Shown: one piece after another, positions 1 to 10,598 of the stretch
Layout: each line of letters opens with the position of its first letter
How positions within the stretch are numbered: position 1 is the stretch's first letter
NCBI GenBank assembly: GCA_016235865.1
Contig: JACRIK010000018.1
Location: 66,891 to 130,890 of the forward strand
Direction: 5' to 3'
DNA: 64,000 bases
DNA from: Planctomycetota bacterium
GTDB taxonomy: Bacteria > Planctomycetota > MHYJ01 > JACQXL01
The notes under the pieces: model-generated
Database searches by the model: none
The model's input: only the letters and a program-made list of their open reading frames with translations
What the model was told of the DNA's origin: nothing
Made by a program: the position numbers and the translations under genes

Positions 1-390
1 GCCACGGAAGGCGTTTATCTCTGCGGCTTGGCGCATTCACCGAAGAATATAGATGAAAGTATTATTCAGGCCTGCGGCGCGGCTTCAAGGTCATCAACTA
101 TTTTAGGTAAGGATAGGATTGAACTTGATGCGATTGTCAGCGAGGTGGTTGACGAGAATTGCGATGGCTGCGCTTATTGCGTTGACCCCTGCCCGTACCA
201 TGCGCTGGCCTTGATTGAGTATGCCCGCGACGGGGCGATCAAGAAGACGATTGACCGTGATTTGGCGCTCTGCAAGGGATGCGGGGTCTGTCAGGCCACC
301 TGCCCCAAGGGTGGTATTGTGGTCAATAACTTTAAATTGCCGCAGATACAGGCGATGGTGGCCGCAGCATTAGAGTCGTCGACAACTTAA
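1..390 (+). CDS. hdrA: Heterodisulfide reductase subunit A (HdrA), C-terminal fragment with 2x[4Fe-4S] ferredoxin domain. The 5' end lies outside the window.
   Basis: The frame is open from base 1. It reads ATEGVYLCGLAHSPKNID...CDGCAYCVDPCPYHA...CKGCGVCQATCPKGG...QIQAMVAAAL, matching the HdrA C-terminal flavin-site loop and ferredoxin dicluster. It is immediately followed by mvhD. Confidence 0.6.
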   Translation, partial: ATEGVYLCGLAHSPKNIDESIIQACGAASRSSTILGKDRIELDAIVSEVVDENCDGCAYCVDPCPYHALALIEYARDGAIKKTIDRDLALCKGCGVCQATCPKGGIVVNNFKLPQIQAMVAAALESSTT

Positions 391-404
391 ATGAGGAGTA
401 GATT

Positions 405-857
405 ATGAGTGAGACACAAACTTCAACCGGGGAACAGACCGCGACTAATACATTTGAACCATTAATTATTGTTTACTGTTGTAACTGGTGTTCTTATGCC
501 GGCGCAGACTTGGCCGGGACATCACGTTTACAGTATCCGTCAAATATTCGCATTATCCGCGTAATGTGCTCAGGCATGGTTCATCCTAATTTAGTCGTGG
601 AGGCATTAACCAAAGGAGCTAATGGGGTTTTGATGTTGGGTTGCCATATCGGCGATTGCCATTATCTGGAAGGAAACTTAAAGGCCCAGGGGCGCATAGA
701 GGCCATCCAGCTTTTGCTGGATGATATGGGTGTGGAACGGGATCGGTTCCGGCTGGAATGGGTTTCGGCTTCGGAAGGCCCGCGCTTCGCCCAGGTTATC
801 AAGGATATGACAGAGCAGATAAAGAATCTTGGTCCCAGCTCGTTCAGGCAGTATTAG
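405..857 (+). CDS. mvhD: Methyl-viologen-reducing hydrogenase delta subunit (MvhD/FlpD-like)
   Basis: Contains the YCCNWCSYAGADLAG motif typical of MvhD. An SD (GAGGAG) precedes the ATG. It lies between hdrA and mvhGA. Confidence 0.8.
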   Translation: MSETQTSTGEQTATNTFEPLIIVYCCNWCSYAGADLAGTSRLQYPSNIRIIRVMCSGMVHPNLVVEALTKGANGVLMLGCHIGDCHYLEGNLKAQGRIEAIQLLLDDMGVERDRFRLEWVSASEGPRFAQVIKDMTEQIKNLGPSSFRQY

Positions 858-921
858 TTAGTTTAGTAGGAGCGCCCTATAGTAGGGCGTTGAGGCGGTG
901 GAGAGGGTAAAAGGAGTTAGT

Positions 922-1374
922 ATGAAGATAGACAATAACCTTCCACTATATTCTATTTCGGTTGTGGCCAAGCTCTGCTCGACTCCGATAAGGATGCTGC
1001 GAGAATATGAGAAACAGGGATTAATCAAACCGAAGAAGGTCAACCGGCGGCGCTTATTCACGGTTAACGAGGCGGGTTTTATCAAGGATATCAGATATTA
1101 TCTGGCCGAGAAAAGGATGACCATTAACGGGCTGAAGGAGTTTTATCTCAGGTCTTCTTGCTGGGAAATCAAGCAGTGCAACCGCCGGCAATGTCCGGCC
1201 TACGGTAAATTAGACAAGCAATGCTGGGAGGTAGTGACGCACCATAAAATATGCGACGGTAAGGCTTGTCCCTCTTGTCCGATTTTTATTATTAAGACGT
1301 CTTTATGTGGTAAGCAAAACAAGAAATACGAGAGCCACTTTGCCTACGAGGCGGGTGGTGTTAGAGCCAAATGA
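922..1374 (+). CDS. MerR-family HTH transcriptional regulator with a Cys-rich (9 Cys) C-terminal domain. The ORF track gives start 898; ATG 922 has the better SD.
   Basis: The N-terminus LYSISVVAKLCSTPIRMLREYEKQGLIKP is a MerR-type HTH. The C-terminus is CWEIKQCNRRQCPAYGKLDKQCWEV...CDGKACPSCPIF. AAGGAG lies 7 nt upstream of ATG 922. Confidence 0.6.
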   Translation: MKIDNNLPLYSISVVAKLCSTPIRMLREYEKQGLIKPKKVNRRRLFTVNEAGFIKDIRYYLAEKRMTINGLKEFYLRSSCWEIKQCNRRQCPAYGKLDKQCWEVVTHHKICDGKACPSCPIFIIKTSLCGKQNKKYESHFAYEAGGVRAK

Positions 1375-1379
1375 ATCAT

Positions 1380-1443
1380 CCCGATAAAAACTATCGGGAT
1401 AACTGGCTGTAAAGCTCCTTCGTCGCTAACAGCCAGTAAGGAG
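1380..1443 (+). repeat. Structured REP-like element copy C1: hairpin cccgatAAAAActatcggg, then ATAA, then stem ctggctgt...CTAAC...agccag, then TAAGGAG.
   Basis: Same architecture as the copies at 34147, 37895 and 39925. Its 3' end supplies the SD for ATG 1451. Confidence 0.6.
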
Positions 1444-1450
1444 TTAAAGT

Positions 1451-1645
1451 ATGCCAATAAATTACCGCGTTATCAGCAACAAGAAATATATGTGGGACGG
1501 CAAGGTCTATGACAACGAGGGTGATGCCCTTAATGCCGCATCTGGTTACAAGAAGGATAACTTTGACGTCCAATTAATCCAGGAGGAAGGCAAACATTAT
1601 ATTTATACTCGGCGTGTGGCTGCCGCGTCAACTACCGCGAGTTAA
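1451..1645 (+). CDS. Small hypothetical protein (64 aa) inside the mvh/hdr operon
   Basis: Strong SD TAAGGAG 7 nt upstream. No recognisable motifs. Confidence 0.4.
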   Translation: MPINYRVISNKKYMWDGKVYDNEGDALNAASGYKKDNFDVQLIQEEGKHYIYTRRVAAASTTAS

Positions 1646-1678
1646 AGAATAATATTATAAACCCGAAAGGAGGGAAAT

Positions 1679-2677
1679 ATGCCAGTAAGAGTGGCTGAAG
1701 AGTGGCTGAACATCTGTGGCGGATGTGAAGTTACTATTTTGGACATAGGCGAACCGCTCTTGGACCTTCTGCCCCAGTTGGAGTTCGTGCACATCCCGGT
1801 GCTGGCGGACAACAAATACTTCGGGCAGGTCGGCGAGAAGAGCGCTATGGAGATTCCCCAGGCAGATGTGGGAATCATCTCCGGCGGTATCCGCAATGAA
1901 AAGGAAAAGCATGTGGCTGAGGAAATGCGCAAGAAGTGCAAGACCATTGTTGCGCTCGGCTCCTGCGCCTGCTTTGGCGGAATTCCGGCTATGGCGAACA
2001 TGTGGAATCTGCAGGGCCTTTATGACAAGGTCTATCGTGACAGCGTCACGACAGAGAAGGGCGAGACCCCCAAGGAAAACCTACCGCCACTCCTTGACAG
2101 GGTATATGCTTTGGACGAGGTGATTAAGGTTGATGTGGCCATCCCCGGCTGCCCGACGTCTCCGGACTGGGTGGTCGGCGCATTGACTTCTCTTCTGACC
2201 GGCAAGCCTTTTGTCATGCCGGAAAAGAGCGTCTGTGATGAATGCCCGACCAAGCGGGAGAAGAAAGCCGCCGGCGGCCAGATTAAGAGACCTTTGGAAT
2301 CGATTACCTTTAAGCAGGGTGAGCCATGGGAAAATACCCGTTGCTTTATGGAACAGGGATTCCTTTGTCTGGGTCCTGTGACCAAAGCCGGATGCGCCGG
2401 TGGGACCACCGAGCCAGGTGAATCAAAAGTGCCACGTTGCATCAAGGGCTATATGCCTTGCCGCGGCTGTTTTGGGCCAATCCGCAAAGGCGCCAATCCA
2501 TTGGTTGATATGATGACGGCGATTTCCTCAATCGGACTAGATGCCAAACAAGTTGCAGACCGCAGGGCTTTGCTTAACAGGTATATCGGCGGTCAGGGAC
2601 GCTTGAAGCCCATACCTGAACCAAAGGGTGGAGCCCAAGCACAGAAAGGAGGCGCAGAATGCCAGGCAAGACCATAA
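1679..2677 (+). CDS. mvhG: [NiFe] hydrogenase small subunit (F420-non-reducing hydrogenase MvhG-type)
   Basis: N-terminal ICGGCEV...ILD and multiple Fe-S Cys clusters. SD AAGGAGGG precedes the ATG. It overlaps the start of the large-subunit gene. Confidence 0.85.
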   Translation: MPVRVAEEWLNICGGCEVTILDIGEPLLDLLPQLEFVHIPVLADNKYFGQVGEKSAMEIPQADVGIISGGIRNEKEKHVAEEMRKKCKTIVALGSCACFGGIPAMANMWNLQGLYDKVYRDSVTTEKGETPKENLPPLLDRVYALDEVIKVDVAIPGCPTSPDWVVGALTSLLTGKPFVMPEKSVCDECPTKREKKAAGGQIKRPLESITFKQGEPWENTRCFMEQGFLCLGPVTKAGCAGGTTEPGESKVPRCIKGYMPCRGCFGPIRKGANPLVDMMTAISSIGLDAKQVADRRALLNRYIGGQGRLKPIPEPKGGAQAQKGGAECQARP

Positions 2678-4107
2678 CTATTGCGCCGGTCAGCCGAATT
2701 GAAGGTCACGCCAAGATAACCATTCAACTGGATGACGGCGGCAATGTCCAAGATACATGGGTAAATGTCGTGGAACTCAGAGGTTTCGAGAAGTTCTGCC
2801 TGGGCCGGCCTGTGGAAGAGATGCCTCGTATCGTCACGAGCATCTGCGGTGTTTGTCCCTGGTCGCATCATCTGGCGGCAGCCAAGGCCTGCGATGCGGT
2901 TTTCGGGGTGGCACCGACTCCGACCGGGGCAAAACTGAGAGACCTCTGCAACAGTATTGCCTATACCGAGGAGCATATCCTGCATTTCTTCTTCCTGGGC
3001 GGTCCGGATTTCGTAATGGGACCGGATGCCGATCCGTCAGTAAGAAATGTCATTGGGATTGCCAAGGCCAATCCTGAGATAGGCAAGAAGGTGGTTCGTA
3101 ACAGGCACCTGGGCGCCAGGATGCTTAACATCGTTTCCGGTAAGTCCATTCATCCGGTCACAGCGGTTCCGGGCGGATTCTCCAAGCCGCTTACCGAGGA
3201 TGAACGCAAAAAGGTCCTGCCCATGGCTGAAGAGGTATTGGAGTTTGCTAAGTTCTCCATCAAGTTTGCTAAGGAGAGCATCTTCCCCAAATACCTTGAT
3301 GTTGTAAAGACCTTAGCGGTCATTAAGACTGGATTTATGGGAACGGTGGACAAGGATGGAGCGCTTAATTGCTATGACGGTAAAATCAGATTGATGAAGC
3401 CGGATGGCACATACACCGATTTTACCTATGACAAGTACACGGATTACATCGAGGAGAAAATCCTTAACTGGTCATATCTCAAGTTCCCGTATGCCAAGAC
3501 CTGGGGTGAGGGCTTCTCTATGGATTTGAACAATCCTAAGGGAATCTACCGGACCAATACATTGGCCCGCATTAACGTGGCGGAAAAAATGGCTACCCCG
3601 CTGGCGCAGAAGGAATTTGAGGAATTCCGCAAGAACTTCGGCCGACCGGCCCAATTGACCCTGCTTTATCACTGGGCCAGATTGATTGAACTCCTGTATC
3701 ATGCGGAACATGCGGTGGAACTCCTGAACGATAAGGATATCACAGGCAAGGAGACCCGGGTGAAGGTAACGCCCAGGGCCGCACGTGGAGTAGGTTGCGT
3801 GGAAGCGCCCCGCGGGACGCTGATTCACGACTATACCACCGATGCGGACGGTCTCTTGACTAATTGCAATCTGATAGTTGGCACCACCCACAACAATGCC
3901 GCGATTAATATGTCCGTCAAGCAGGCGGCCCAACTCCTGATTAAAGGCGGAAAATATGATCAGGGTATGATGAATAAGGTGGAGATGGCTATCAGGGCTT
4001 ATGACCCCTGTCTGTCTTGCGCGACGCATAATCTTGACGGGACTTTACCTGTTAAGGTTACCATTATGAATGCCAAGGGCAAAGTGGTTGATACACTGGT
4101 AAACTAA
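2659..4107 (+). CDS. mvhA: [NiFe] hydrogenase large subunit (MvhA-type)
   Basis: N-terminal RIEGHAKI plus CGVCPWSHH (L1/L2 Ni-binding motifs). C-terminal DPCLSCATH with cleavage-site His. Confidence 0.9.
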   Translation: MPGKTITIAPVSRIEGHAKITIQLDDGGNVQDTWVNVVELRGFEKFCLGRPVEEMPRIVTSICGVCPWSHHLAAAKACDAVFGVAPTPTGAKLRDLCNSIAYTEEHILHFFFLGGPDFVMGPDADPSVRNVIGIAKANPEIGKKVVRNRHLGARMLNIVSGKSIHPVTAVPGGFSKPLTEDERKKVLPMAEEVLEFAKFSIKFAKESIFPKYLDVVKTLAVIKTGFMGTVDKDGALNCYDGKIRLMKPDGTYTDFTYDKYTDYIEEKILNWSYLKFPYAKTWGEGFSMDLNNPKGIYRTNTLARINVAEKMATPLAQKEFEEFRKNFGRPAQLTLLYHWARLIELLYHAEHAVELLNDKDITGKETRVKVTPRAARGVGCVEAPRGTLIHDYTTDADGLLTNCNLIVGTTHNNAAINMSVKQAAQLLIKGGKYDQGMMNKVEMAIRAYDPCLSCATHNLDGTLPVKVTIMNAKGKVVDTLVN

Positions 4108-4160
4108 AAAGGACAAAAATAGGGGCGTCCCGGCTAATGGGGCGCCCCTATATACCCATT

Positions 4161-4712
4161 ATGGAAACATCTGATTATTATAGTAAGAATATATTGGTGC
4201 TGGGTTGCGGCAATATCCTTTACGGCGATGACGGATTCGGGCCGGATGTGGCCGATTATATTTCAAGCAATTATAAGATACCGGAAAATGCCGCGGTGGT
4301 AAACCTGGGTTTATCCACCCGGGGATTTATATTTGATATTTTATTGAGCGAACAGAGGCCAAAATGTATTGTGGTGGTCGATGCGGTTACCTGTGAAGGT
4401 AAGAAGCCGGGCGAGATATTCGAAATTCCGCTGGATAATCTCTGCAAGGAAAAGGTAGACGATTTCTCGTTCCACCAGGGACCGACATCAAATCTGCTTA
4501 GGGAATTAAGGGATATCTGCGGTGTTGGGATAGTGATTCTGGCCTGCCAGCCGCAGGGGATTCCCAAGGAAATGACCAGGGGGCTGTCAGAGCCGCTTAA
4601 GAAATCGGTTATTAATATGAGCGAGCTTATTTATAATAGATATTTGAATCATGAAATAAACAAGGAGAATTTGAAATATGCCAACCCAAGCAACTGTAAT
4701 GCCCGATGCTAA
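4161..4712 (+). CDS. Hydrogenase maturation endopeptidase (HycI/HoxM family). An alternative in-frame start exists at 4137.
   Basis: ILVLGCGNILYGDDGFGPDV is the maturation-protease signature. It lies directly downstream of mvhA. Confidence 0.7.
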   Translation: METSDYYSKNILVLGCGNILYGDDGFGPDVADYISSNYKIPENAAVVNLGLSTRGFIFDILLSEQRPKCIVVVDAVTCEGKKPGEIFEIPLDNLCKEKVDDFSFHQGPTSNLLRELRDICGVGIVILACQPQGIPKEMTRGLSEPLKKSVINMSELIYNRYLNHEINKENLKYANPSNCNARC

Positions 4713-5244
4713 GTTCCTTAAACAGATGGACGATAAAATCAAGGTAAATGTCAATCTGTGTTTCCAGTGCCGGAAGTGTTCGGCCGGATGCCCGATGGCT
4801 TATGCCATGGACTATACTCCGGCTCAGCTTATCCACGCCATTCGCCTGGGATTGAAGGATATTGTCATTAACAGCAAGACTATGTGGATGTGCTCTTCCT
4901 GCCAGACCTGCACGACCCGCTGCCCGCAGGAGGTTGATATTGCCAGGGTGATGGATACGGTCAAGATCCTTGCGGTGGCCGAGGGGATTAAACCCCCAGT
5001 TTCCAGCGTGCATACGTTCAATAAGGCGGCCTTGCGCAACATCAAATGGCTGGGCCGGATGTATGAACTGGGCATGATTGGCGACCTGAAGATGCGCACC
5101 TTTGAGTTCTTTAAGGATATGGGCTTGGGCATGAAGATGTTTATGAAGGGCAAACTGAAGATTATTCCTTCGGTTTCCCCGGGCCGGACCCTGACCACCT
5201 GGAAGATATTCTCCAGGTCTGCCAAGAAAGATAGGAGTAACTAA
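4678..5244 (+). CDS. hdrC: Heterodisulfide reductase subunit C
   Basis: Two CxxCxxCxxxCP motifs (CFQCRKCSAGCPM, CSSCQTCTTRCPQ). SD AAGGAG precedes the start. Followed by hdrB. Confidence 0.8.
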   Translation: MPTQATVMPDAKFLKQMDDKIKVNVNLCFQCRKCSAGCPMAYAMDYTPAQLIHAIRLGLKDIVINSKTMWMCSSCQTCTTRCPQEVDIARVMDTVKILAVAEGIKPPVSSVHTFNKAALRNIKWLGRMYELGMIGDLKMRTFEFFKDMGLGMKMFMKGKLKIIPSVSPGRTLTTWKIFSRSAKKDRSN

Positions 5245-6104
5245 TGAATACAAAATATGCTTATTATCCGGGCTGTTCGCTGCATTCCACCGGCGCTGAA
5301 TATGATGTGTCATTCAAGAAGGTGGCCGGGAAGTTGGGAGTAGAACTGGCCGAGGTTCCGGGCTGGGTTTGCTGCGGGACTTCACCGGCCCATAGCGCTT
5401 CACATCTCCTGTCCATTGCCTTGCCGGTTAAGAATCTTTCCCTGGTTGAGACCATGGCTAAGGACGTGGTGGTTCCCTGCGCGGCCTGCTATTCCAGGTT
5501 TAAGTTCGCCACCTATGAAATGGGGCACGACAATAAATTGGCCGAGGATGTCAAGGAGGTTATCGGTTCATCATTCCAGAATAAAGTCAAGGTCTTACAT
5601 CCGCTGGAAATATTCGCTCAGATACCTCCGGACGCATTAAAAGCTCAGGTTAAAGAAAACCATAAGGACAAGGCGTTAAAGGTAGTGTGTTATTACGGCT
5701 GTCTGCTGACCAGGCCGCCCAAGGTAATGCAGTTTGACGATGTGGAATACCCGATGACCATGGACAAGGTTCTGGAAAATACCGGTTATCAAATCCTGGA
5801 CTGGTCTTATAAGACCGATTGTTGCGGCGCCAGCTTTGCCCTGAGCGAAACCGATGCGGTTCTGACCCTGACCCAGAAGATTCTCAAGAACGCCAAAGAG
5901 GTCGGGGCTGATGCCATTGCCGTGGCCTGTCCGCTCTGCCACGCCAATCTGGACACCAGGCAGACGGATATTAATGCCAAATACAATACCGATTACAACA
6001 TCCCGATATATTACTTTACCCAACTGATGGGTCTGGCATTCGGTTATAGTCCCAAGGAAATGGGAGTAAATAAGCATTTGACAGAAGCGACAATGAACGT
6101 TTAG
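5244..6104 (+). CDS. hdrB: Heterodisulfide reductase subunit B (two CCG domains)
   Basis: N-terminal YYPGCSLHST, with CCG motifs (WVCCGTS, TDCCGAS). Confidence 0.85.
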   Translation: MNTKYAYYPGCSLHSTGAEYDVSFKKVAGKLGVELAEVPGWVCCGTSPAHSASHLLSIALPVKNLSLVETMAKDVVVPCAACYSRFKFATYEMGHDNKLAEDVKEVIGSSFQNKVKVLHPLEIFAQIPPDALKAQVKENHKDKALKVVCYYGCLLTRPPKVMQFDDVEYPMTMDKVLENTGYQILDWSYKTDCCGASFALSETDAVLTLTQKILKNAKEVGADAIAVACPLCHANLDTRQTDINAKYNTDYNIPIYYFTQLMGLAFGYSPKEMGVNKHLTEATMNV

Positions 6105-6119
6105 GCAAAGGAGGCTATT

Positions 6120-6368
6120 GTGCACGAATGGGGATTGACGGCTGATGTGGTGGAAGAGGTTAAGAAACAAGCCGCTAAGAATGATATTGTTAAGGTAACC
6201 AAGGTTCAGATTGGCCTGGGGAAAAAGGCCGACCTGAGCGAAAGAGCATTCCGGACCTGCTTTAAGGTCCTGGCCAAGGAAACTATTATGGAAAAGGCGC
6301 GGCTGGCTTTTACCAAAAGACCGGACCATATTATCATCGTGAATACTATCGAGGGTAAGCAAGAGTGA
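6120..6368 (+). CDS. HypA-like protein, N-terminal Ni-binding domain only (82 aa, lacks the Zn-finger). GTG start.
   Basis: GTG at 6120 with AAGGAGG 6 nt upstream. Begins MHE... and contains QAAKNDIVKVTKV, like HypA MHE...QAAKHGAKRVT. There are no CxxC pairs. The stop overlaps the next gene's start (GTGA). Confidence 0.55.
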   Translation: MHEWGLTADVVEEVKKQAAKNDIVKVTKVQIGLGKKADLSERAFRTCFKVLAKETIMEKARLAFTKRPDHIIIVNTIEGKQE

Positions 6369-7744
6369 AGACGGCACAATCCATTATTAATGAAGAAGCT
6401 TTAAGCAGGATGCTCTCTGAAAGCCAGGATTCTGCGCCGGCGGCCATCCGCCGTATCATAGCCAAGGCCCGCCTTAAAAAGGGATTAACCGTAGAAGAAG
6501 TCGCCTACCTGGTTAATATTAAGGATAAATCGTTATTAAAGGAACTCTTTGAGACGGCCGCCCTGATTAAGCAGGAGATTTACGGTGAGCGGTTGGTTTT
6601 CTTTGCGCCATTATACGTCTCTGATTACTGCGTCAATGACTGCGCATATTGCAATTTCCATACCCGGAATAAGGAATTATCGCGCCGGCGGCTGACCCTT
6701 GACGAAGTAGCCCAGCAGGCCGAATTTATCATCAATCACGGCCATAAACGGATTCTTCTTGAATTAGGCGAAGACCCGGCCCATAATGAGATTGATTATG
6801 TGGTTGACGTGATTGACCGGATATACTCGGTCCGGACTCCCAAGGGCAATATCCGGCGTGTCAATGTCAATATCGCGGCCACTACCGTGGATGATTACCG
6901 GAAACTAAAGTCCGCCAAAATCGGCACCTATCAGCTCTTCCAGGAAACCTACCACCGACCGACCTATGAGAAACTGCACCAAGGCCCCAAGGCCGATTAT
7001 GACCGCCAGATAACCGCCCATACCCGGGCCTTCGAGGCCGGGGTTGACGATGTGGGCCTGGGTGTTCTCTTCGGTCTTTATGACTGGCGTTTTGAGACGC
7101 TGGGCCTGGTGGCGCACGCCTTGTATCTGGATCAGACCTACGGAGTAGGTCCGCATACTATTTCCGTGCCGAGAATCTGCCCGGCCAGCAGCGTGGATTA
7201 TAAACCGGAATACCCGGTCTCTGACAATGATTTCCTGAAGCTTATTGCTATATTGCGTCTGGCCGTGCCCTATACTGGGATGATTATCTCCACCCGTGAA
7301 AGTGCTGAGATACGAAAGATTGCTTTTAAGATAGGCATTTCCCAGGCCAGCGCCGGCTCGGTCACCACCACCGGCGGCTACGGCAAGGCATCACTGCAGG
7401 CCCAGTTCACGGTCCACGACAACCGTTCTTTGGAAGAGGTTATCCGTGAAGTGATTAAGGACAAGATGATACCCAGTTTCTGCACGGCCTGTTACCGGAG
7501 CGGCCGGACCGGCGAACGGTTTATGAAACTATCCAAGCCCGGTGAAATCCACAAATTCTGCCGGCCTAATGCGCTGCTGACCTTTGCCGAATACCTCTAT
7601 GATTGCACCACCAACGGCATTACGGAATCAGGAATGCAGCTCATCGTGGATTATCTGGAGCAGATAGAAGACGAGCCGATTCGCGCCGAAACCCGCCGGC
7701 GCCTGGCCGATATCAAGAACGGCAAACGCGATTTGTATTTTTAG
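6365..7744 (+). CDS. hydG: HydG-type radical SAM tyrosine lyase ([FeFe]-hydrogenase maturase family)
   Basis: CVNDCAYC radical-SAM motif. IRRVNVNIAATTVDDYRKLKSAKIGTYQLFQETYH is HydG-like. C-terminal CTAC-x22-C (CX2CX22C) auxiliary-cluster motif is present, which ThiH lacks. Confidence 0.8.
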   Translation: MKTAQSIINEEALSRMLSESQDSAPAAIRRIIAKARLKKGLTVEEVAYLVNIKDKSLLKELFETAALIKQEIYGERLVFFAPLYVSDYCVNDCAYCNFHTRNKELSRRRLTLDEVAQQAEFIINHGHKRILLELGEDPAHNEIDYVVDVIDRIYSVRTPKGNIRRVNVNIAATTVDDYRKLKSAKIGTYQLFQETYHRPTYEKLHQGPKADYDRQITAHTRAFEAGVDDVGLGVLFGLYDWRFETLGLVAHALYLDQTYGVGPHTISVPRICPASSVDYKPEYPVSDNDFLKLIAILRLAVPYTGMIISTRESAEIRKIAFKIGISQASAGSVTTTGGYGKASLQAQFTVHDNRSLEEVIREVIKDKMIPSFCTACYRSGRTGERFMKLSKPGEIHKFCRPNALLTFAEYLYDCTTNGITESGMQLIVDYLEQIEDEPIRAETRRRLADIKNGKRDLYF

Positions 7745-8045
7745 TCGCGGTTTGAACGCAATTAATTACTGCGACTTATCCTGAGCAAAGCGAATGGTTA
7801 GGGCGAATTACAGCCCCTTATCCTGCATCAGCGGGGTCCCGATGCATATCGGGGTTAAGCCATTTAGAATTCTTTCAGTATAAACCCCACAAAGGGATAA
7901 ACCCTAAATTCCACCTTGGTTCCTGTCATAATCCGAGCATAATTATCATGTCTTTTTTATATAACTCATTATGCTATAGAATATTGTATAAAATATTACT
8001 CTGCAAAACTAGGGGGAGGGGGTATGGTGGGGGGTAGTACCCTTG

Positions 8046-8320
8046 GCGCTACGGAGGTACGTTATCGGCCCGACGGAGGTACGTCACCGGCACTACCGAG
8101 GTGCATTCCAGGCGCTACAGAGGCATATTCTAGGCGCTACAAAGGTATATTCCAAGCGCTACAAAGGTACATTCCAGGCGCTACAAAGGTATGCTCCAGG
8201 CGCTACGAAGGTATGCTTCTGGCGCTACGAAGGTATGCTTCTGGCGCTACAGAGGTATGCTTCCGGCACTACGGAGGTATGCTTCCGGCGCTACGGAGGC
8301 ACGTCACCGGCACTATCATC
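8046..8320. repeat. Tandem array, 22-bp unit (consensus gcgctacaaaggtatgcttccg), about 12 copies
   Basis: The period can be read directly. Units diverge at the edges. There are no spacers, so it is not CRISPR-like. Confidence 0.85.
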
Positions 8321-8520
8321 GGTGTATGCTCACCATCCCTATAGGGTGGTAAAAAAAGAGGTTATTTATTGGTTTTTACTGAGAAGGAATCGGTAAAATA
8401 CTTAGTTGGCTTTCATTTATCTATTTACAGATAATTCGTCAGCATCATCGGCGAGGTCATAGCGGTTAGGGGGTGAGGTGATAGTGGTCAGATAGTTTTT
8501 ATCAATCATTAAAATACCAT

Positions 8521-8651
8521 TTTTATTGACCCCGTTAGAGATGTTTAATATACTAAATGATTAGTAGTATCAGGATATTTAGTAATGGTGATTAGTAACA
8601 AGATACTGGTAATACGGTCATCCCGATGGAATGACCTATCTCTAACGGGGT
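8521..8651. repeat. Long inverted repeat ttgaccccgttagagat / atctctaacggggttgac flanking about 100 bp of AT-rich DNA, just upstream of the 8682 gene
   Basis: The 17-bp arms are perfect reverse complements. The motif tatctctaacgggg recurs at 39883. Confidence 0.7.
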
Positions 8652-8681
8652 TGACACTGGCTAATTAGAAAGGTTCTACGC

Positions 8682-10052
8682 ATGAAGAGAAAACTGTTGA
8701 TTATGGGCGCGGCCGGCAAGGATTTCCACGTCTTTAATACCCTCTACCGGGATAATCCGGACTATGAGGTGGTCTGCTTTACCGCTACCCAGATACCTAA
8801 TATTGATAACCGGATGTATCCGACAGAACTGGCCGGTTCAATGTATCCCAAGGGAATCCAGATTAAGCCGGAGGCCATGTTGGTTGACCTGATTAAAGAG
8901 CATAAGGTTCAGGAGGTGGTGTTTGCTTATAGCGACGTTTCTTACGAATATATTGATGGCAAGAAAAAGATGGTTCAGGCCGCCGGGGCGGAGTTTACCC
9001 TGCTGGACCCGGTTAAGGTGATGCTCAAGTCCACCAAGCCGGTCATCGCGGTCTGCGCGGTCCGGACCGGCGCCGGCAAAAGCCCGGCTAGCCGTCGGGT
9101 GGTTGATATCCTCAAGAAATACAACAAGAAGACCGCGGTGGTGCGCCATCCCATGCCCTACGGCGACCTGGTCAAGAGCACGGTCCAGCGCTTTGCCACC
9201 TTTGAAGACCTTATCAAATACGATTGCACCATTGAGGAGCGTGAGGAATACGAGCCGCATCTCCAAAAAGGCGCTTTGGTCTATGCCGGTGTGGATTACG
9301 AGAAGATTTTGCGCGAGGTGGAAAAGGAAGCGGATGTGGTTATTTGGGACGGCGGCAATAACGATACGCCATTCTACAAGCCGGACCTACACATCACGAT
9401 TTGCGACCCGCTCCGGCCGGGACACGAACTCTCCTATTACCCGGGCCGGGAGAATTTCGAGATGGCTGATGTTCTGATTATAAATAAGGTGGATACGGCC
9501 AAGACCGAGGATGTGGAGTCCATCCTCAAGAATGCTAAGCAGTATAATCCCAATGCCCAGATAATTATGGCTAATTCGCCGGTCTTTGTTTCTGACTCGG
9601 ATAAGATTAAGGGGAAAAAGGTCCTGGTTATAGAGGACGGCCCGACCGTGACGCACGGCGAGATGGGCTATGGTGCTGGTTTTATCGCGGCTAAGAAATA
9701 CGGCGTGGCTGAGATTGTTGACCCCAGACCCTATGCTAGCCAGGGTATCAAAGAGGTATTTGCGAAGTATCCCAAGACCACCCAGGTTCTGCCGGCCGTG
9801 GGTTATAGTTCCAGGCAGATTAAAGATCTTGAAGAAACCATTGAGAATTGTCCCTGCGACGTGGTTATTATTGCCACCCCGATAAACCTGGCCCGGATAG
9901 TCAAGATAAACAAGCCCTGGGTCCAGGTGACCTATGAGATAGAAGAGATTTCTAAGCCACGGTTAGGGGATATTATGGCGCAGAAATTCGGCTGGCAGGG
10001 CCAGAGCCAATTCGGAAGCCGGCCCGGGATGCAGATGCTGGCGAGACCGTAA
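8682..10052 (+). CDS. COG2403-family P-loop protein (predicted GTPase, cyclic 2,3-diphosphoglycerate synthetase-like)
   Basis: 456 aa with an internal Walker A (AVRTGAGKS). Overall similarity to the archaeal CPGS / COG2403 family is recalled from memory and was not searched. Confidence 0.4.
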   Translation: MKRKLLIMGAAGKDFHVFNTLYRDNPDYEVVCFTATQIPNIDNRMYPTELAGSMYPKGIQIKPEAMLVDLIKEHKVQEVVFAYSDVSYEYIDGKKKMVQAAGAEFTLLDPVKVMLKSTKPVIAVCAVRTGAGKSPASRRVVDILKKYNKKTAVVRHPMPYGDLVKSTVQRFATFEDLIKYDCTIEEREEYEPHLQKGALVYAGVDYEKILREVEKEADVVIWDGGNNDTPFYKPDLHITICDPLRPGHELSYYPGRENFEMADVLIINKVDTAKTEDVESILKNAKQYNPNAQIIMANSPVFVSDSDKIKGKKVLVIEDGPTVTHGEMGYGAGFIAAKKYGVAEIVDPRPYASQGIKEVFAKYPKTTQVLPAVGYSSRQIKDLEETIENCPCDVVIIATPINLARIVKINKPWVQVTYEIEEISKPRLGDIMAQKFGWQGQSQFGSRPGMQMLARP

Positions 10053-10118
10053 AATAAGAGTGATGAAGAAGGGTTGGGATGAACCCAGCCCTTCCCTAAA
10101 TCAGAAAGGAAGGGCTGG

Positions 10119-10598
10119 GTGAATACACAATTTCCCGAACTGATACCCCGTCTGGAGAGTTATTCCACGATAAAGACCTGGCGCGAGCATGATGGCCGAT
10201 ATCGTCTCCAGGGTACCAGATGCCGTAAATGCTCCGAGAAATGGTTTCCGCCCCGGGTTGGGCTTCCCTGTCCCAAATGCCACGCGATTAATATGGAGCC
10301 GTATGAATGCGCCCGGACCGGCGAGGTAATTTCGTTCCAGCTGGAGGTGATGGGCTATCCGGCGATGGGCTACGGAGAATTGTCGCCCCGCAAGATATGT
10401 ATTATTAAACTGGATGACGGCATCCATATCATCGGTGAGGTGGTTGATTGCGGCGAGAATGACGTTCATCCGGCCGAACCCACCAAGAATAAGTCCGGCA
10501 CCCGGGTCAAGATGGTCTTCCGCAAGCAGAAACGCGAGGAAACCGGCAATTGGATGTACGGCTATAAGTTCGTGATTGACCCAGCACATAAGAAATAA
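10119..10598 (+). CDS. DUF35-like Zn-ribbon/OB-fold protein (thiolase-associated family). GTG start.
   Basis: CRKCSEKWFPPRVGLPCPKCHA zinc ribbon followed by a predicted OB-fold. SD AAAGGAAGG precedes the start. Confidence 0.5.
   Translation: MNTQFPELIPRLESYSTIKTWREHDGRYRLQGTRCRKCSEKWFPPRVGLPCPKCHAINMEPYECARTGEVISFQLEVMGYPAMGYGELSPRKICIIKLDDGIHIIGEVVDCGENDVHPAEPTKNKSGTRVKMVFRKQKREETGNWMYGYKFVIDPAHKK

Follow-up and report, generated by a model that had tools for sequence, protein, structure and literature searches.

The 64,000-nucleotide stretch analyzed here (the window; position 1 is its first letter), from a contig of a metagenome-assembled Planctomycetota genome, carries near its start an operon for a [NiFe] hydrogenase that ends in two genes of the maturation type: hypA, encoding an 82-residue HypA-like protein, and hydG, encoding a 459-residue radical S-adenosylmethionine (SAM) enzyme of the HydG type. 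The genes and features of this operon, all on the plus strand, are as follows.

28-390, plus strand: ferredoxin-like C-terminal part of an HdrA-like subunit (Pfam Fer4 dicluster domains); the gene is truncated by the window start.
405-857, plus strand: MvhD, delta subunit of methyl-viologen-reducing hydrogenase (Pfam FlpD, E=6e-54).
898-1374, plus strand: MerR-family regulator with a Cys-rich C-terminal tail (Pfam MerR_1/MerR), inside the operon.
1451-1645, plus strand: conserved open reading frame (ORF) of 64 residues, 5' of mvhG (cluster c10; no family match).
1679-2677, plus strand: MvhG, [NiFe] hydrogenase small subunit (Pfam Oxidored_q6).
2659-4107, plus strand: MvhA, [NiFe] hydrogenase large subunit (Pfam NiFeSe_Hases; best NCBIfam model VhuA, 441.6 bits).
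4137-4712, plus strand: HycI-type large-subunit maturation endopeptidase (Pfam HycI, E=3.8e-17).
4678-5244, plus strand: HdrC-like ferredoxin subunit (Fer4_8/Fer4_17).
5244-6104, plus strand: HdrB-like subunit (Pfam CCG, two stretches).
6109-6114, plus strand: Shine-Dalgarno sequence AGGAGG, read from the sequence, 5 nucleotides 5' of the hypA GTG start.
6120-6368, plus strand: HypA without a zinc domain, 82 residues (Pfam HypA, alignment and AlphaFold2 model).
6365-6368, plus strand: GTGA, the start/stop overlap of hypA and hydG.
6365-7744, plus strand: HydG homologue, 459 residues (TIGR03955 and alignment to PDB 4WCX).

By its gene content and motifs the hydrogenase is assigned to the Mvh-Hdr class (group 3c [NiFe] hydrogenase with heterodisulfide-reductase-like subunits), all diagnostic genes and motifs of which are present. 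The MvhA translation has an N-terminal CGVC and a C-terminal DPCLSCATH followed by a 24-residue C-terminal extension, and an HdrA-like protein of 1025-1044 residues occupies the position equivalent to the truncated gene in the related loci L002 and L008 (comparison loci are given as L numbers throughout). The GTG of hypA at 6120 opens 15 bases past the end of hdrB, and the TGA stop of hypA (6366-6368) overlaps by 4 bases, as GTGA, with the GTG of hydG at 6365. The two genes are translationally coupled and share a strand with the genes for the hydrogenase and the protease; the 4-nucleotide overlap was also found in L008/L013 and in L011. The encoded HypA and HydG are identical to NCBI entries MBI5778848.1 and MBI5778849.1, respectively.

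The 82-residue protein opens with MHEWGL...KKQAAKNDIVKVTKV... and has no CxxC pairs. It was matched by the Pfam HypA profile (PF01155) at E=1.7e-14 and 54.2 bits (gathering threshold 28.9), with residues 1-68 covering profile positions 1-68 of 112. Against the NCBIfam HypA equivalog models the score was 49.2 bits for a cutoff of 88.1, a shortfall expected because this is a domain-deleted form. When aligned with full-length HypA proteins, the short forms were found to be missing precisely the CxxC...CxxC insert of about 30 residues and to retain the C-terminal strand of the nickel domain (HIIIVNTIEG in the window protein; I..IEGE among the short forms). As judged by alignment, short HypA is an internal deletion of the zinc module and not a C-terminal truncation, which corrects the initial annotation, where the protein was described as ending before the zinc finger. 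The MHE at residues 1-3 was conserved across short and full-length forms, with M1 and H2 invariant and E3 at least 90% conserved. A search of 1.8 billion cluster representatives (clusters at 50% identity) revealed at least 45 clusters of short HypA that aligned over their whole length at 78-93 residues (mostly 80-85) and outranked ordinary HypA proteins of about 113 residues. Zinc-less HypA is thus a broad family; its natural occurrence is notable because the zinc-site cysteines of Helicobacter pylori HypA are reported to be functionally important (PMC5557546).

An AlphaFold2 model of the short HypA was obtained with a mean predicted local distance difference test (pLDDT) score of 95.4, and the 14 best matches of this model in a Foldseek search of the PDB were all HypA, at template modeling scores (TM-scores) on the query of 0.71-0.91. 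The protein is thus predicted to have the alpha/beta fold of the nickel domain. Matches of the 82-residue query to pentatricopeptide repeat (PPR) proteins in the PDB were set aside as artefacts of repeat summing, with no significant single domain among them.

To our knowledge, HydG is known only as the builder of the iron-carbonyl-cyanide unit of [FeFe] hydrogenases. In the canonical enzyme tyrosine is cleaved by radical SAM chemistry, and the resulting CO and CN- are assembled on an extra iron of the C-terminal cluster. The 459-residue window protein scored 541.8 bits against the HydG model TIGR03955 (cutoff 312.15) and 279.9 bits against ThiH (cutoff 380), and aligned end to end with HydG of Thermoanaerobacter italicus (TiHydG, PDB 4WCX) at about 62% identity, through the C-terminal domain missing from ThiH and up to the terminal RDLYF. 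The cysteines of both cluster-binding motifs were invariant in an alignment of 84 homologues; in the window protein the radical SAM CX3CX2C reads CVNDCAYC (C88/C92/C95) and the auxiliary-cluster CX2CX22C reads CTAC-x22-C (C371/C374/C397). In addition, H249, conserved in 81 of the 84 sequences, aligned with chain position 265 of 4WCX; H265 of TiHydG is the histidine ligand that holds the fifth ('dangler') iron. Taken together, the scores and alignments identify the protein as a full HydG, canonical in sequence, in which every cluster ligand is kept.

The pairing of the two genes would be meaningless if the 82-residue ORF were a decayed hypA remnant, or if the HydG homologue were a ThiH-type lyase acting in thiamine or other cofactor synthesis. 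The low NCBIfam score of the former and the rank of ThiH as second-best family for the latter speak for such an explanation. Against it, the short form is conserved in many clusters with a (near-)invariant MHE and a precise excision of the insert, its confidently modeled fold has HypA alone among its 14 best PDB matches, and the identity of the larger protein as a ThiH-type tyrosine lyase was rejected on the score below the ThiH cutoff and the presence of the C-terminal CX2CX22C domain that ThiH lacks. We consider this explanation very improbable. The initial annotation had recognized the GTG-started MHE ORF as a HypA nickel domain devoid of CxxC, the GTGA overlap with the radical SAM ORF, and, from CVNDCAYC and CTAC-x22-C, a HydG and not a ThiH; coordinates, Pfam and the AlphaFold2 model agree on the first of these, the overlap was read in the sequence, and the family scores support the third. 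Nor did alignment and fold comparison of the 82-residue protein reveal an unrelated family with a better fit than HypA.

The association of hypA with hydG extends to other genomes. Relatives at 74-91% identity keep the Mvh-Hdr-HypA-HydG layout, and hydG was found directly 3' of hypA, with the genes for a [NiFe] large subunit and its protease on that strand too, in the window, L008, L009, L011 and L033. Among these, the HydG proteins of L009 and L011 come from other lineages (69-71% identical) and also lie directly downstream of HypA. L009 encodes the small and large subunits of a group-1-like [NiFe] enzyme and a protease, followed by short HypA, HydG and a third protein; L011, from Elusimicrobia, encodes a group-4 enzyme of the Mbh/Mrp type followed by a full-length HypA, HydG and the same third protein. 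This protein, of about 392 residues in both loci, consists of an N-terminal HypC domain joined to a radical SAM enzyme that scores above the HydE equivalog cutoff, and is designated HypC::HydE. Group 3b and 3c enzymes accompany the module in members of the candidate phyla radiation (CPR), DPANN archaea, Omnitrophota, Elusimicrobia and Thermodesulfobacteriota. In the reverse direction, a search from short HypA (metagenome scan plus contigs, with a six-sequence HypA alignment as the scan query, a broader alignment, A2, being too diverse) found HydG directly 3' of it in L093 and L095-L100, and HypC::HydE came next wherever a short HypA-HydG contig extended far enough. The link between short HypA and HydG is frequent and not absolute, because in the short contig L101 a membrane protein lies 3' of short HypA in place of HydG.

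The HypC motif MC[YL][AT]IP was located at or near the start of nearly all fusions, within the first 120 residues of the called ORF in 52 of 53. Cys2 of this motif binds the iron unit, and HypC is a chaperone specific to [NiFe] large subunits. The HypC::HydE family comprises more than 7000 proteins at E<=1e-20, with both domains present in all of the top 120, and its members are named in NCBI either '[FeFe] hydrogenase maturase HydE' or 'HypC family chaperone'. In a Falkowbacteria (CPR) locus (L065:8732-11377), HypC, HydE and HydG form a single protein of 881 residues, encoded next to the [NiFe] small and large subunits and a short HypA of 84 residues; this triple fusion is a direct link among the three activities. 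Other domain combinations were also observed: the group-3c locus L033 (11390-13729) encodes, 3' of short HypA and HydG, a 779-residue protein composed of HypC, HydE, DUF362 and a 4Fe-4S ferredoxin, and a separate DUF362 gene lies near an unlinked fusion in L111.

The neighborhoods of HydG were then compared in a census of the best 80 HydG loci (52-74% identical to the window HydG) on GTDB contigs, one genome per species. These were from Planctomycetota, Omnitrophota, Elusimicrobia, Firestonebacteria, many CPR/Patescibacteria, DPANN archaea, Thermodesulfobacteriota and Chlamydiae; neighbors were classed by local profiles and features were counted up to 10 kb on either side of HydG. Where HypC::HydE was adjacent (53 loci), a [NiFe] large subunit or Mbh/Mrp genes were detected in 26 loci, HypA in 10, HydF in 2 and HydA in none. 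By contrast, the 13 loci with unfused HydE had no [NiFe] or Mbh/Mrp genes and no HypA, with HydF in 6 and HydA in 3, such that HydF or HydA occurred in 7 of the 13. Fisher tests, which ignore shared ancestry, gave p = 9e-4 for the [NiFe] contrast and p = 6.6e-5 for the HydF/HydA contrast. Groups 1, 3b, 3c and 4 were represented among the [NiFe] hydrogenases at HydG loci, with the beta and gamma subunits of group 3b confirmed. Thus, the HypA-HydG pair that the initial annotation had pointed out recurs beside four [NiFe] groups and in many phyla, with HydA absent within 10 kb and HydF almost always so. That annotation overlooked HypC::HydE as the usual third partner, the internal nature of the zinc-domain deletion and the breadth of the zinc-less HypA family.

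HypD, HypE and HypF were looked for by a scan for sequence motifs that we take to be characteristic of each. About 1.4 Mb of HydG-containing loci yielded no such motif, whereas the control loci with canonical full-length HypA (L103, L105, L106, L109 and L110) contained them. In a Pfam census of 146 same-strand neighbors in the fusion loci, Rex, ferredoxins and Mrp subunits were found, and the 25 families listed, each of which was present in at least 3 of the 146, included none of HypB, HypD, HypE and HypF. The redox-sensing repressor Rex was the commonest extra neighbor of the HydG-HypC::HydE clusters (7 of 146; L016, L018, L023, L031, L037 and others).

We propose that hypA and hydG encode maturation factors for the adjacent [NiFe] hydrogenase and are not stray genes of an [FeFe] system, a reading to which we assign a probability of roughly 0.6. 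In the proposed route, HydG would convert tyrosine to CO and CN-, with both assembled at the additional iron of the C-terminal cluster, as suggested by full conservation of the ligands. The resulting iron-carbonyl-cyanide unit would pass to HypC::HydE, in which the HydE domain would process it and Cys2 of the HypC domain would carry it into apo-MvhA. Zinc-less HypA, by homology and fold, would bind nickel through the N-terminal Met-His-Glu and then insert it, and the HycI-type protease would trim the C-terminal extension of MvhA. Such a route would take over some or all of the work of HypD, HypE and HypF and would supply the CO ligand under anoxia.

Several points weigh against this assignment, which is itself a genomic inference. 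Canonical HydG delivers two CO and one CN, and the [NiFe] site holds one CO and two CN; a radical SAM route might give a cofactor with a different CO/CN ratio. The HydG protein itself gives no sign of a new function, because HydGs of the two contexts, [NiFe]-linked and [FeFe]-linked, are intermixed in a neighbor-joining tree and no position cleanly separates them, Y252 being the best and a tendency only. The census loci, as species representatives, are phylogenetically non-independent, and about half of the fusion loci have no hydrogenase within 10 kb, many of these contigs being short. A true HydF, with GTPase, dimer and tetramer domains, is encoded in two Omnitrophota loci (L023:16675-17907 and L037:16652-17884). 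Within the window, HypC::HydE was not detected by a profile of 52 fusions searched against the six-frame translation, which matched HydG alone through the shared radical SAM core, and hypCDEF, hydE, hydF and hydA may sit elsewhere in the source genome. As a separate observation on L023 and L037, HydF lies about 5 kb 3' of HydG and HypC::HydE with no hydrogenase of either type within 10 kb, an exception to the [NiFe]-only pattern.

Some of these points would equally suit a HydG that is an ordinary dispersed [FeFe] maturase. Its Fe(CO)2(CN) synthon would then go to an [FeFe] hydrogenase whose genes lie with hydE and hydF at another site of the genome, and its own place here would reflect a neighborhood effect among hydrogenase genes. 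Its sequence and motifs are indistinguishable from those of canonical HydG; the [FeFe]-linked HydGs of Firestonebacteria (L019/L022/L025), at 64-66% identity, are as near to the window HydG as many [NiFe]-linked ones, with contexts that interleave in the tree; HydF does occur near the fusion in the two Omnitrophota loci; and the source genome is represented here by the 64-kb window. The census is difficult to reconcile with this account, since HydA is missing from all 53 fusion loci and HydF from all but 2, [NiFe] genes being present in 26. Further evidence against it comes from the overlap of hypA and hydG, which is kept across phyla, from the fusion of HydE to the [NiFe]-specific HypC with the Cys2 motif intact, from the triple HypC-HydE-HydG fusion adjoining a [NiFe] enzyme, and from the spread of the association over four [NiFe] groups. 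We regard a dispersed [FeFe] maturase as unlikely. The initial annotation had offered two options, a HydG serving a distant [FeFe] enzyme and a HydG/HypA pair serving the adjacent Mvh enzyme; comparative genomics favors the second. A ThiF/MoeB-family E1-like gene was observed directly 5' of hydG in L025 (9250-10017), L019 and L022 (Firestonebacteria, [FeFe]) and in L031, an Omnitrophota [NiFe] 3b locus.

No hydE, hydF, hydA or hypB to hypF was found when every ORF of 110 residues or more in the 64 kb was scanned with Pfam, a result with which the fusion-profile search agrees; for hydE, hydF and [FeFe] hydrogenase genes, the initial annotation had stated as much. The whereabouts of HypC::HydE in the lineage are indicated by relatives. 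The closest species representative, the metagenome-assembled genome (MAG) GCA_043801445.1, encodes a HydG 74% identical to that of the window in a window-like layout on contig JAZDMB010000041, with no fusion adjoining hydG, and has HypC::HydE on a different contig, JAZDMB010000015, where a ribosomal-protein cluster and then an M50 peptidase gene precede it. A second Planctomycetota MAG has the same ribosomal-cluster arrangement of the fusion, and a third has the fusion in a different neighborhood, unlinked from hydrogenase genes. The triad of HypA, HydG and HypC::HydE is therefore present at the genome level, in dispersed form, in this lineage; that the same dispersed triad also occurs in the window's own genome is likely. 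The gene order at the unlinked site was read in the loci L117 (5082-9179) and L116 (5100-9179) of two Planctomycetota MAGs, where HypC::HydE lies directly 3' of the ribosomal cluster S17-L14-L24-L5-S14-S8 and the M50 peptidase gene, far from hydrogenase genes. One Planctomycetes HypC::HydE fusion from the same Sequence Read Archive (SRA) series (P0230; MBI4834568) was rejected as the partner of the window proteins, as its accession is far from MBI5778848/9 and indicates a different MAG.

In another possible scheme nothing is replaced: HydG would fill one missing step, as HypX does in aerobes, by acting as an anaerobic donor of CO (perhaps also of CN) to a conventional HypCDEF set encoded elsewhere, with HypA as the nickel chaperone of the operon. 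HydG can release free CO and CN in vitro, which counts in favor of a donor role. The window HydG is without a HydE or HypC partner, and in Planctomycetota the fusion gene may lie apart from the hydrogenase genes, both of which fit the scheme. It would also answer a need, in that a 2025 review of [NiFe] cofactor biosynthesis, in which HydG and radical SAM enzymes are absent, names the origin of CO in anaerobes as the most pressing question (PMC12134894). By contrast, the near-universal pairing of this group of HydG with HypC::HydE suggests a carrier-bound iron unit and not free CO. In addition, HypD, HypE and HypF were never seen in the HydG neighborhoods, yet are present at canonical HypA loci, and the module is carried by small CPR and DPANN genomes, to which a symbiont genome of 1.52 Mb (described below) may be added. 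A simple donor role is thus, in our estimate, unlikely.

If hypA and hydG indeed serve the adjacent [NiFe] enzyme, a wider proposal can be framed, which we put forward tentatively and at somewhat less than even odds: many uncultured anaerobes may build the Fe-CO/CN half of the [NiFe] site by a radical SAM route, taken over from [FeFe] maturation, of HydG, HypC::HydE and an often zinc-less HypA that replaces HypD, HypE and HypF and supplies CO anaerobically. Its users may include Planctomycetota, Omnitrophota, Elusimicrobia, CPR bacteria, DPANN archaea and some Thermodesulfobacteriota. The module would be a widespread and apparently undescribed hybrid of the Hyd and Hyp systems, and its components can be compared with those of each.

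With HydG of the HydEFG system, represented by TiHydG, the window protein shares the overall identity given above, the CX3CX2C motif, the BATS domain, the CX2CX22C motif, the histidine of the fifth iron and a score that passes TIGR03955. It differs in its setting, as hydE, hydF and hydA are not found in the window and hydG is coupled to the hypA that ends a [NiFe] Mvh-Hdr operon, and in its closest relatives, which pair with HypC-fused HydE and [NiFe] genes and not with HydF and HydA. With HypA of the HypABCDEF system (Thermococcus kodakarensis, PDB 3A43; H. pylori, PDB 6G81), the short protein has in common the MHE motif, the nickel-domain fold (TM-score up to 0.91), the C-terminal strand and a place in a hydrogenase operon that includes the protease. 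Unlike these, it is without the CxxC...CxxC zinc module and does not reach the NCBIfam cutoffs, no hypB is adjacent, and hydG comes next where hypB or hypC to hypF would be expected. Finally, the role proposed here resembles that of HypC/HypD with HypE/HypF and HypX in that diatomic ligands would be placed on iron and delivered through the Cys2 thiolate of HypC, the fusions keeping MCxxIP. The ligands would, however, be derived from tyrosine by a radical SAM enzyme and not from carbamoyl phosphate (CN) and a one-carbon carrier (CO), and none of HypD, HypE, HypF and HypX was seen in the surveyed neighborhoods.

The initial annotation had called the arrangement undescribed, and the literature is in keeping with this: a search for HydG with HypC or HypA and for HydE-HypC fusions, with subscription journals outside its scope, found one preprint sentence only. 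That sentence mentions, without interpretation, an 'unusual HydE-HypC fusion' in the group-3 [NiFe] operon of Ca. Centrionella anaeramoebae, a symbiont with a genome of 1.52 Mb, and the preprint names no HypD, HypE or HypF (bioRxiv 10.64898/2026.04.11.717937). The likeness to the present system is at the level of the module, as the Centrionella fusion occurs in a group-3 [NiFe] operon with HypA and the protease. The two differ in that Centrionella is reported with HypB and HydG is unmentioned, whereas the window has HydG and HypA and no fusion.

HypA-HydG-HypC::HydE at [NiFe] operons provides a concrete and testable candidate for an anaerobic route to the CO and CN ligands, and connects Hyp with Hyd maturation, two systems otherwise treated separately. 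HydG and HydE hits, which are common metagenome markers of [FeFe] capacity, may often report [NiFe] maturation; the reading of H2 metabolism in CPR, DPANN and other candidate phyla would therefore be affected. Being compact, at about four maturation genes, the module could also ease heterologous production of [NiFe] hydrogenases.

Several minor features of the operon and its flank were noted. The position of the MerR-family regulator between mvhD and mvhG is kept in L001 and L002, and the 64-residue ORF recurs as an ORF of 64-66 residues in 8 related loci, including the more distant L033. A gene of the 23S_rRNA_IVP family (four-helix bundle) lies between hdrB and hypA in L002 (9590-9946) and L014 (7841-8215); the window has no such gene at this position. 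Promoter and terminator counts across window positions 1-10200 were at chance level. On the 3' side, about 940 bp separate hydG from the next gene, and the relative L002 has a gap of similar size after hydG. No Rfam family was matched in the window gap, where a 22-bp unit is repeated in tandem about 12 times at 8045-8315 (79% matches; consensus GGCGCTACGGAGGTATGCTTCC), giving rise to spurious repetitive ORFs at 8024-8396. A P-loop protein of 456 residues is encoded at 8682-10052, with cyclic 2,3-diphosphoglycerate synthetase as its best match (PDB 9sxb, E=5e-7). It was considered as a HypB or HydF analogue and left out of the system, the CobW/HypB-like similarity being weak and 40 residues long. 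Across the genus its gene is a conserved neighbor of hydG (L002 and L095), on the opposite strand in the case of L013.

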